A DNA stretch of 64,000 nucleotides from Escherichia phage BAU.Micro_ELP-22. Below are positions 40,181-64,000 of the stretch, one piece after another; position 1 is the stretch's first letter; each line of letters opens with the position of its first letter. Under the pieces are notes generated by a model. The model was not told the DNA's origin. It worked only from the letters and a program-made list of their open reading frames with translations, and did no database searches. Location of the stretch: sequence record OR699282.2, one strand, 5' to 3'. The position numbers were made by a program, and so were the translations under genes.

Positions 40181-40220
40181 GTTTATTAATTAGAGTGACG
40201 TGAATCACATAGGAGAATAC

Positions 40221-42509
40221 ATGAATCTTACTCAATTGTTCAAAAAAAGCGACGAACTGGCAACATCTCTAGGTCATACATTCTTGACTATTGACCACGT
40301 AAGTGCCACAGTACTGACTATTGATAGCATCAAGAACGTATTTGAAGATATGAACATTGATGCAGACAAACTGCACAACCGCCTGATGAACTATCTTAAA
40401 AATACAACAGTTCCACATGCACCAAAAAGTGTTAAAGATGAAGACGCGAATCGCACTTCACTTCTAGTGAATCGCGTTGTACATGAGCTTTCTAAAAAAT
40501 CAGTTATTGAACAACTAAAAAGTGATGATTTTTCGATTGATGCATATTTTGTTCTATTCGAATGTCTGTCTTTCCCTAACACAGCACTAGAAGCTGCGTT
40601 AAAAGAAGAAGGTGTTAGCTGTACTGAAGCTGCACGTGCATTACAGAAACATGTTGAGTCACTTGATAAGGGTATCAACTTACAAAGTATTAATGACGAA
40701 CCGATTGGAGATAAAAAAGTGGCCCAACAGCAGCAATCATCTAAACAAAAAGGTTTGGAAGACTATACAACGAATCTAACTGCTCTTGCAAAAGAAGGCA
40801 AACTAGATCCTATGATTGGTCGCCAGAAAGAATTGTCTGCATTGATTGAGACTCTTGCTCGCAAAACCAAAAAGAATGCTATTCTCACTGGTGAAGCTGG
40901 TGTAGGTAAAACACAAATCATCGACGGGCTTGCACAAGCTATTGCTGATGGTAACGTACCTGAACACTTGAAAGACGTTGAAATTCTTTCACTAAATGTT
41001 GGTGCATTGACTGCTGGTACTAAGTATCGTGGTGAGTTTGAAGAACGCATCGACAATTTGCTAAAAGAACTAAAGAAACGTGAAAATACTATTGTTTTCA
41101 TTGATGAAATTCATATTATGGTTGGGGCTGGTTCCGCAAGTAATGGTTCTATGGACATGAGCAATATGCTTAAGCCAGCACTTTCACGTGGTGAGATTCG
41201 TGTAATTGGTGCAACAACATATGATGAATATCGTAAAAATATCGAGAAAGATAGTGCATTAACTCGTCGTTTTATGAAAATTGACGTAGTTGAGCCGACA
41301 ATTGATGAAACTCGTGCAATTGTTAATGGTTTGAAACCAACGTATGAAAAATTCCATAATGTTGAGTTCACATCTGATGCAATGGATGCTGTAATTTCTC
41401 TCAGTGATAAATTCCTGAAGAATAAGCACTTCCCAGATAAAGCAATTGATCTAATGGATGCTGCTGCGGCTAAAGTTCGTTCACGTGACAACAATAGTAA
41501 GCTTATTACTGCCAATTTGATTCAAGAAGTTGTTGCTGGTATTGCCAATTTGGATATCAACGTGGTTGCATGTACTGAAAGTGATCGTATGCGTAATCTA
41601 CCAGATGCACTACGCTCACGTGTATACGGTCAAGAGGAAGCTATTCAAAAATTAGTTGATAACGTGATGGTAGCTCGTGCAGGACTGCGTGACAAATCTA
41701 GTGTTCAGGGTGCATTTATGTTTGTTGGACCATCTGGTACTGGTAAAACAGAAATTACCAAAGCATTAGCAGACGCAACTGGTGCGGAACTCATTCGCTT
41801 TGATATGTCAGAATTTTCACAAGAACATACTGTTTCTAAACTAATTGGTTCACCTCCAGGTTATGTTGGTCATGATTCTGGTAACGGTTTACTGTTGGAT
41901 AAAATTGAGCAGTTCCCTAATGCAGTACTGTTACTTGATGAAATTGAAAAAGCAGATCGTAAAGTACTACTAACCTTCCTACAGGTTTTGGATGAAGGTC
42001 GTCTGACTGGTTCTCAAGGTAAAACTGTATATTTTAATAACGTAACTGTTATTATGACTACAAACCTTGGTGCGGCTGATTCAACAAAGCGTAGCATTGG
42101 TATGAGCGGTAGTGACACTGCACAGGACAAGGCAATTAAAGCATTCTTGCCACCAGAGTTTATTAACCGTATTGATAGTATCGTTACGTTTAAAGACCTA
42201 AGCAGTGAAGCTATTGACAGCATCATTGATAAGTTCATGGGTGGTTTGAATGAACAAGTCAAAGACCGTAATGTTAAAGTTACATTGACAAAAGCTGCAC
42301 GTGAATGGCTTGCGAAAAATGGGGTAAAAGTTGGTATGGGTGCACGTCCAATGAAACGTACCATTGAACAAAACATTCGTGTGCCACTAGCTAAAGAAAT
42401 GTTGTGTGGTTCACTTGTGAATGGTGGTAACATTACATTTGATGTTATTGATGGTAAAATCGGTATTAAGCCGAAACGTACCAAAGCTGTAGATAAAGCA
42501 CTAGTATAA
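40221..42509 (+). CDS. ClpA-like double AAA+ unfoldase
   Basis: D1 Walker A GEAGVGKT and Walker B IVFIDEIH; D2 Walker A GPSGTGKT and Walker [10 protein letters not shown]; C-terminal [13 protein letters not shown]; IGM tripeptide in the D2 loop; ORF-track start 40200 is GTG, ATG with AGGAG SD at 40221. Confidence 0.85.
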
Positions 42510-52548: not shown

Positions 52549-52563
52549 TTGATTTATTTATGA

Positions 52564-57076: not shown

Positions 57077-57084
57077 TATTTATA
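57077..57084 (-). promoter_or_regulatory. T4-type late promoter box TATAAATA (minus strand)
   Basis: Exact TATAAATA 16 nt upstream of the lysozyme ATG, followed by GAGGA SD. Confidence 0.5.
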
Positions 57085-63080: not shown

Positions 63081-63126
63081 CTTTTTGATTCTCCATAATA
63101 AGGGAACATTTGATGTATTTATACGT

Positions 63127-63154
63127 GGGACAAACTGCTTTTTGGTGCTATAAT
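63127..63154 (+). promoter_or_regulatory. sigma70-type promoter (GTGGGACAA, 16 nt, TGcTATAAT)
   Basis: GGGACA 63127-63132; TG 63146-63147; TATAAT 63149-63154; palindrome GGTACAAGGATTGTACC at 63164-63180 follows. Confidence 0.5.
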
Positions 63155-63211
63155 AACATTGATGGTACAAGGATTGTACCTATTGGATTTAAACATGGAG
63201 AGTAAAATACA

Positions 63212-64000
63212 ATGACAAATAGACCAAAGCGTAAAAAGTATCTCAATAATGCTGATTTACTTCGTGAAATACAAAAAAGTAAAATTTCATATTGCTGGTT
63301 ATTAGACAAATCATATAGTATGTATGATTATATTGTTTTTCATGAGTCAGAAATTACTGCTGAGTTACTAGAAAAAGCTAAGGCAGCACGAATTAAACGA
63401 CTGAACAATGAAATGCTTGATAGTATTCGTGAAAAGGAAAATATGAGTGCTAAAAAAGCTAAAGAATATGCAGATGAACACAATTTAGTTATCACTGACG
63501 TTCCAATTGATGAAGTTGTTATTCGTGTTATTACAGATGAACATATTCCACCAGATACTAGAGTTAACTTTGAACCATTCAAGCATTATATTGTAGATAA
63601 TGAAGGTATTCTCTATGAAGTTTGTCGTTCTCACTGGAAAGGCGACCTTGAAACTGGTGAATTCAGTACTGTTCATGGTAAAATTACAAATGAACTTGGG
63701 AAGATGTTCATTAAACTTGCAGAGGAAATCTCACACAAATCTAATTACAGAAACTATACATACTTAGATGAAATGATGGGTGATGCAAGAATACAATTAG
63801 TTAAAAACGCACTTCTCTTTAAAGAGAGCATTCTTTATAAAAAAGATAAACCAGCAGTTCAGCTAAATCCTTTCTCTTACTATACATCATTCGTAAACAA
63901 TAGTTTTCGTTCTATATTGAATAGTGAGAAAAATGTTCGAAATATACGTGATGATTTACTTGAAATGCATGGCTTTACGCCATCACATACACGTCAAATT
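63212..64000 (+). CDS. gp55-like late-transcription sigma factor (5' part; runs off the window)
   Basis: Frame open from ATG 63212 to the window end, not in the ORF track because no stop is present; KKYLNNADLLREIQ, GKMFIKLAEEISHKSNYRNYT and NPFSYYTSFVNNSFRSI resemble T4 gp55 regions. Confidence 0.55.
   Translation, partial: MTNRPKRKKYLNNADLLREIQKSKISYCWLLDKSYSMYDYIVFHESEITAELLEKAKAARIKRLNNEMLDSIREKENMSAKKAKEYADEHNLVITDVPIDEVVIRVITDEHIPPDTRVNFEPFKHYIVDNEGILYEVCRSHWKGDLETGEFSTVHGKITNELGKMFIKLAEEISHKSNYRNYTYLDEMMGDARIQLVKNALLFKESILYKKDKPAVQLNPFSYYTSFVNNSFRSILNSEKNVRNIRDDLLEMHGFTPSHTRQI

Follow-up and report, generated by a model that had tools for sequence, protein, structure and literature searches.

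A relative of the T4 late sigma factor gp55 with an extra folded domain in a jumbo coliphage

Introduction

Late transcription in phage T4 needs the co-activator gp33 and a sliding clamp loaded onto the DNA, and is the textbook case of clamp activation. The sigma factor itself, gp55, has 185 amino acids. Its tail of about 40 residues is disordered and ends in the sliding-clamp-binding motif SLDFLYE; T4-type gp55 proteins in general have a tail of this length, with [ST]L[DE]F[LF]Y[EG] as its terminal motif. Truncated T4 gp55 still supports basal transcription (PMC7892883); the clamp motif thus defines the clamp-activated mechanism and not sigma activity. In T4 gp55, the pocket for the adenine at position -9 is lined by N13 and H95, and Y97 accommodates the adenine at -12 and T99 the adenine at -8. 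L54, R57 and F86 are further pocket residues for the flipped adenines, and contact with the beta' clamp helices of RNA polymerase is made by E70, D74 and E77 (PMC7892883).

The closest described systems are those of the Rak2-like jumbo phages. CBB encodes a gp55-like sigma factor and carries the motif ATAAATA at 35 sites; its likeness to the T4 late promoter was noted, and the motif was also predicted in GAP32 (PMC5259590). No gp33 or gp45 was found by the authors of the CBB study (PMC5259590). Contrary to this, Iyer et al. 2021 reported both gp33 orthologues and clamps of the PCNA type for group 2 jumbo phages (PMC7824862).

Here, we describe a gene of this kind at the end of a 64,000-nucleotide stretch of Escherichia phage BAU.Micro_ELP-22 (OR699282.2), hereafter the window. 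The call of the sigma gene is nothing new: RefSeq already names the protein, and a gp55-like sigma factor together with the ATAAATA motif has been published for Rak2-like phages.

Results

The sigma gene and its copies in related phages

The open reading frame (ORF) starts with the ATG at 63212 and stays open through base 64000, which amounts to 263 codons. It is preceded by a GGAGAG Shine-Dalgarno sequence at 63196-63201, and a longer N-terminus is excluded because a TAA lies in frame at 63203-63205. The gene and the segments of its protein, with helices as predicted by AlphaFold2 (AF2), are the following:

63212..64000, plus strand: gp55-type late sigma factor gene, codons 1-263 of 279, clipped at the window edge
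63212..63286, plus strand: N-terminal segment equivalent to T4 gp55 residues 1-20; it includes helix H1 (residues 13-25) and the motif Y10-L-N12-N13-x-D-L-L-x-E-I20
63272..63634, plus strand: insertion relative to T4 gp55, residues 21-141, between H1 and H2
63689..63733, plus strand: helix H2 (residues 160-174), counterpart of T4 gp55 H2 (I43-R57)
63764..63805, plus strand: helix H3 (residues 185-198) with E187 (T4 E70) and D191 (T4 D74), predicted contact with the RNA polymerase beta' clamp helices
63869..63967, plus strand: long helix H4 (residues 220-252), from AF2 and alignments to T4
63986..64000, plus strand: start of helix H5 (residues 259-275, helix-loop-helix motif); the protein ends outside the window

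In a tblastn search of a phage collection, at least 14 phages of the genus Asteriusvirus, jumbo coliphages and Salmonella phages that include PBECO4, SP27, phAPEC6 and UB, encode the 263 residues with 100% identity, and 121Q does so with 99%. The final 6.8 kb of the window is 99.6% identical to PBECO4 DNA. The counterparts in PBECO4 (gp530, YP_009150844) and 121Q (gp591) both have 279 aa and carry the RefSeq label 'sigma factor for late transcription'. Since these copies have 279 aa, the ORF needs only 16 codons past the window. According to the original prediction, the ORF runs beyond the window and exceeds the 185-aa T4 protein; completing it from the flanking sequence of PBECO4 gave 279 aa and bore this out.

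Homology to T4 gp55

The sigma protein shares only about 23-24% sequence identity with T4 gp55, and a pairwise BLASTP comparison of the two gave E=2e-4. The protein was matched by PHROG 12791 ('sigma factor for late transcription') with E=5e-148, and its residues 125-257 by the T4-type PHROG 234 ('late sigma transcription factor') with E=1e-17. When the PDB was searched with a profile of 31 family members, the sole match was gp55 of the T4 late transcription complexes 7D7C/7D7D (chain F, E=6e-8); the family profile was required, as a single-sequence phmmer search of the PDB with the sigma protein returned nothing. A T4-type gp55 profile was run against 2,401 stop-to-stop segments from six frames, covering about 338 kb of the window and PBECO4 pieces, and its only match was the ORF at the end of the window (E=3e-14). 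Pfam and NCBIfam scans of the sigma protein gave no match, which is not evidence against homology because T4 gp55 also matches no model there. The check proposed at the outset, a formal alignment to gp55 homologues, proved significant (hhalign against a profile of 27 T4-type gp55 proteins, 98.1% probability, E=1e-13), and the lack of similarity named as refuting was not seen.

The AF2 model was made from a 90%-identical family member with identical numbering (pLDDT 88.9, pTM 0.79) and places helices at residues 13-25, 160-174, 185-198, 220-252 and 259-275. As in T4 gp55, H1-H4 form a predicted sigma region-2-like core, and the extended H4 forms a long helix-loop-helix with H5. The N-terminal motif Y-x-N-N-x-[DE]-L-L-x-x-I stands equally far from Met1 in both proteins. 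Three blocks had been said to resemble T4 gp55; in our alignments, residues 1-20 correspond to T4 1-20 and residues 142-243 to T4 23-116, the protein aligning without gaps from W142 onward with T4 from W23 onward. Of the 11 invariant T4-type positions that could be mapped, nine hold the same residue in the long family, that is, the proteins that carry the extra segment.

The residues with known functions in T4 were then located in the alignment. N13, F203, Y223, T225 and E187 are identical to T4 N13, F86, Y97, T99 and E70 and are conserved to invariant in the long family; Y182 and N219 likewise equal T4 Y63 and N93. The H4-region motif N219-P-F221-x-Y223-x-T225 is the equivalent of T4 N93-P-H95-x-Y97-x-T99, which provides pockets for -12A, -9A and -8A, so that the pocket residues by which the gp55 family holds these flipped adenines are found here by alignment. 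Substitutions in the pockets relative to T4 are L54 to I173, R57 to K176 and H95 to F221, the last being an invariant phenylalanine. Among the acidic residues of H3, E187 is invariant and D191 is present here and variable in the family, whereas T4 E77 is replaced by I194. The gene at the end of the window is thus confirmed as a genuine relative of T4 gp55 with a folded extra domain of about 120 residues, in support of the original reading of a gp55-like late sigma factor with a large extra segment.

Predicted late promoter boxes

Matches to the T4-type late promoter and its core in the window are:

57077..57084, minus strand: exact TATAAATA late-promoter box; the baseplate hub / tail lysozyme gene follows, with its ATG (57060) 17 nt away
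63116..63123, minus strand: exact TATAAATA late-promoter box, divergent from the promoter of the sigma gene; a virion structural gene follows, with its ATG (63080) 36 nt away
52555..52562, minus strand: CATAAATA box, 7 nt before the ATG of the gene for a 3333-aa virion protein
2959, 6033, 9745, 10270 and 34499 (plus strand), 21890, 34465, 56118 and 57094 (minus strand): nine more sense-upstream ATAAATA boxes

The exact box at 57077-57084 had been pointed out before and is indeed present, on the minus strand before the baseplate hub gene; the second exact copy at 63116-63123 had been overlooked. These two copies of TATAAATA are the only ones in the 64 kb, a low extreme compared with the 10.4 +/- 3.3 expected from shuffles, and both are intergenic and upstream of virion genes. 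ATAAATA occurs 14 times on both strands of the window, and 12 of the 14 copies lie no more than 70 nt sense-upstream of a gene start (0.3 expected, p=3e-18). The genes behind these boxes include those for baseplate wedge, hub, the 3333-aa virion protein and a tail protein. The hexamer most enriched upstream of genes was TAAATA (18/47 upstream), which ranked above Shine-Dalgarno words. Other A+T-rich hexamers have about 107-160 copies, two to three times the 47 of TAAATA on both strands of the window. The rarity of TAAATA and TATAAATA suggests selection against stray late promoters inside genes.

The true late-promoter consensus is shorter than the octamer: it has the core ATAAATA, and unlike in T4, the first T of the octamer is not conserved (nATAAATA). 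As in T4, the sequence predicts -10-like promoters of the TATAAATA type before virion genes and no -35 element, the arrangement expected for a gp55-type sigma factor.

A Lon-like ATP-dependent protease gene (40200-42509, plus strand) lies among the tail and virion genes of the window in the opposite orientation. It is preceded by the extended -10-like sequence TGTGATATAAT and not by an ATAAATA box.

PBECO4 encodes a second sigma factor, gp356 (195592-196557, minus strand), an RpoD-like protein of 321 aa with Pfam regions 2, 3 and 4, amid small early genes. It presumably serves another promoter class and could in principle read some ATAAATA promoters.

Candidate promoter and neighborhood of the sigma gene

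The sigma gene has a promoter candidate of its own, with 10/12 consensus matches:

63127..63154, plus strand: candidate sigma-70-type promoter, GGGACA, 16 nt spacer, TG-c-TATAAT (extended -10)

A metagenomic relative with 45% identity has TTGACA-18-TATATT at the equivalent position. It also keeps the gene order, with the baseplate operon on one side and the sigma, SbcD-like and SbcC-like genes on the other. In PBECO4, the stop codon of the sigma gene overlaps the start of the gp47 (SbcD-like) gene, and gp46 comes next; the location upstream of the gp47/gp46 (SbcD/SbcC-like) genes is shared with T4, where the order is likewise 55 ... 47 ... 46.

Positions 63116-63154 of the window hold divergent, back-to-back predicted promoters 4 nt apart: the TATAAATA box on the minus strand facing the baseplate/virion operon, and the extended -10 on the plus strand facing the sigma gene. 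The leader of the sigma gene further contains, between promoter and Shine-Dalgarno sequence, a stem-loop with a 7-bp stem (63164-63180, plus strand; GGTACAAGGATTGTACC); the T-rich stretch behind it has 5 T among its first 8 bases. This hairpin could be an attenuator or another regulatory hairpin.

The C-terminus, gp33 and gp45

The Asteriusvirus protein has no C-terminal sliding-clamp-binding motif. It ends in ...IERKNEDGSV, and since this end lies 4 residues after H5, clamp tethering as in T4 is impossible for it. The missing 40-residue tail with SLDFLYE is one difference from T4 gp55, along with the net insertion of 119 aa between H1 and H2 that forms a separate domain and the exchange of H95 for F221 and of E77 for I194.

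Unlike in T4, homologues of gp33 and gp45 were not detected, in searches of low sensitivity. Neither is annotated within the approximately 323 kb of PBECO4 annotation, which does include a clamp loader, gp445. Searching PBECO4 by phmmer with T4 gp45, gp33, gp62, dsbA and rpbA returned only the gp44 clamp loader, at a low power at which single-sequence searches miss gp55 too. A T4-type gp33 profile, built from close T4 relatives only, reached a best E of about 1 against the genome segments. PHROG scans of ten ORFs of the replication-gene region, five of them beside the clamp loader, matched only unrelated PHROGs at low sensitivity, nearly all of unknown function.

In distant relatives within the long family (P0093, P0103, P0110, P0111 and P0113; Vibrio phage 2.275.O and metagenomic sequences), we observed acidic C-terminal tails of the form DIFDFGD, LFPFDD or ILTYDD, which are reminiscent of L[DE]F[LF]Y[EG], the clamp-binding motif of the T4 type. 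Because such tails are found on deep branches and not in the Asteriusvirus/Rak2-like clade, clamp binding may have been lost within the family.

The inserted domain

In the AF2 model, the extra segment belongs to a predicted domain of about residues 26-159, with a long helical hairpin (50-76, 80-89) and a small beta sheet (strands 40-42, 104-107, 123-128, 134-139). It is predicted to fold confidently both alone and in the whole protein (pLDDT 89-90, pTM 0.79-0.80). The predicted fold found no match in the PDB, and no description of the insertion was found in the papers searched.

A profile of the insertion retrieved 431 cluster representatives at E<=1e-3 and 295 at E<=1e-10 (clusters at 50% identity). 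The domain stands at about residues 20-170 in most of the 431, and an H1-like Y-[LI]-[NT]-N motif directly precedes it in the nine sequences inspected. With 431 cluster representatives, the long form is a large, old lineage and not the peculiarity of one phage. Invariant or near-invariant residues of the insertion region are I41, R60, R63, K81, R105, F120, K124, S140-H141-W142, G144, G149 and F151. The conserved basic residues (K24, R60, R63, K81, R105 and K124) would be compatible with contact to nucleic acid or to an acidic surface. In this gp55 lineage without a clamp-binding tail, the insertion is modeled as a domain that folds on its own, is conserved and has no relative of solved structure.

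Alternative explanations

The extra residues might instead be an N-terminal extension, a reading that we regard as very unlikely. The complete gp55 core would then start at about residue 122, FKHYIVDNEG... would pair with T4 KYNYVNNKE..., and the YLNN motif near Met1 would be a duplicate or a chance look-alike. The alignments that suggested it are a BLASTP match joining residues 124-248 to T4 7-134 in one piece, an hhalign pairing of 122-248 with T4-type 6-122, and the coverage of residues 125-257 by PHROG 234. It was rejected on a head-to-head comparison of the N-termini. Residues 1-34 of the long family matched T4-type residues 1-40 with 95.5% probability (hhalign, E=1.5e-8), ungapped from 1-20 to 1-20, at equal distance from Met1 and with Y10, N12, N13, L16, L17 and I20 identical to T4, whereas the rival segment, residues 116-160, reached 0.3% against the same T4-type N-terminus. 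AF2 makes residues 123-139 a beta hairpin and residues 13-25 a helix; D129 and N130, the would-be replacements of T4 N12 and N13, vary in the family, in contrast to the conservation of at least 90% at Y10 and N13; and the HMMER match is split into 2-30 and 149-243. As the N-terminus test, AF2 and conservation agree, the extra segment is a true insertion, in which residues 21-141 occupy the place of 2 residues in T4. For the visibly conserved blocks, the earlier figure of about 130 residues separating the first region from the second is correct. Nor is it credible to any real extent that a true insertion of this kind is selfish or accidental and functionless, be it an intein, a mobile-element remnant, a gene fusion or an assembly artefact. 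Probable inteins do exist in some family members, and the insertion matches no known fold. However, the inteins of the relatives occupy other sites (after Y182; near N230), whereas the insertion keeps the same site across most of the 431 representatives, with invariant residues, is confidently predicted to fold alone and in the whole protein, and is identical in sequence in at least 14 independently sequenced phages. Intein junctions (N-terminal Cys/Ser; C-terminal Asn followed by Cys/Ser/Thr; a homing endonuclease) were sought in the insertion of the window and none was found. An origin as an intein or mobile element was rejected, the segment having no splice-junction signature and being conserved within the mature fold.

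A different objection concerns the promoters. The ATAAATA boxes might be read by the RpoD-like gp356 of PBECO4 or by host sigma-70, with the gp55-like protein employed otherwise, for example as a modulator that binds RNA polymerase. A second phage sigma factor with regions 2, 3 and 4 is available, and the gp55-like protein has no sigma region 4. Against this, the motif has no -35 element and matches the element read by T4 gp55, and the base-pocket residues N13, Y223 and T225 are kept across the 431 clusters. Early and middle genes of relatives, moreover, have separate sigma-70-like promoter classes (PMC5259590), and it is a candidate sigma-70-like promoter that precedes the sigma gene itself. 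We consider this assignment improbable and prefer recognition of the boxes by the gp55-type protein.

Discussion

The best explanation of the locus, with a probability of roughly 0.85, is that the gene encodes the late-gene sigma factor of a Rak2-like jumbo myovirus (Asteriusvirus, PBECO4/121Q group), acting as follows. Judging by the consensus match, the gene would be transcribed ahead of the late genes from its own sigma-70-type extended -10 promoter. The fold and the conserved E187 suggest that H3 binds the beta' clamp helices of the host core RNA polymerase, as in T4 gp55. The short -10-like element, with its ATAAATA core and no -35, would be recognized by flipping of bases into pockets formed by N13, F203, F221, Y223 and T225. 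For this step, residue conservation and motif placement are observed, and binding is what we infer from them. Base recognition would then switch transcription to the virion genes.

The insertion of about 120 residues between H1 and H2 is predicted to be a separate conserved alpha/beta domain with conserved basic residues. Since the clamp-binding tail is absent and a gp33 homologue was not detected in searches of low sensitivity, our speculation is that the domain most likely makes an additional contact, either to RNA polymerase or to the DNA upstream of the box; such a contact would stabilize open complexes in the absence of the gp33/gp45 clamp system. That the domain is a built-in activator, giving stable open complexes at ATAAATA promoters with neither gp33 nor a DNA-loaded sliding clamp, is a tentative and rather doubtful proposal, and we offer the replacement of clamp-dependent activation by the insertion as a hypothesis, not a finding. 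If true, late transcription would be uncoupled from replication in a large clade of jumbo phages, and a fold with no solved relative would represent a new way to compensate for the missing sigma region 4.

The sigma factors of other Rak2-like jumbo phages (CBB_244, GAP32, RaK2, Atu_ph07 gp694; PHROG 12791) belong to the same family and have the same architecture. Their genomic context is also the same, with the ATAAATA late motif as published for CBB and GAP32 (PMC5259590), and there is no difference of substance. A likeness of another kind exists to primary sigma factors such as E. coli sigma-70, in which the non-conserved region (sigma-NCR) is likewise a large lineage-specific insertion, located between region 1.2/H1 and region 2.1/H2. 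H1 probably corresponds to sigma region 1.2, in which case the insertion site would be that of the sigma-NCR; no fold similarity was found between the inserted domain and known sigma-NCR.

A gp55 lineage of 431 clusters at 50% identity thus carries a conserved domain whose predicted fold is unmatched, and its Asteriusvirus/Rak2-like clade has no clamp-binding tail. The role of the domain bears on how far clamp-coupled late transcription extends, to T4-like viruses in general or to the T4 group only. Understanding it would also aid the annotation of late promoters in the genomes of jumbo phages used for therapy.

Additional observations

Five relatives outside the window (P0248, P0255, P0266, P0331 and P0358; 445-980 aa) contain one or two large intein-like inserts each. 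The first insert follows the conserved ...NYRNY, begins with Cys and resumes at N|SY.DEM, which corresponds to Y182/T183 of the query, before H3. The second interrupts H4 near query N230, and the family sequence continues at N|C.TR.LN.EKK. P0358 has a LAGLIDADG_3 domain (E=7e-6). Because Pfam shows no Hint domain, the assignment of these inserts as probable inteins rests on the junction residues.

Elsewhere in PBECO4, positions 157841-170100 hold ten tandem paralogous genes that run against the early genes around them and carry the annotation 'regulator of chromosome condensation' (RCC1-like).
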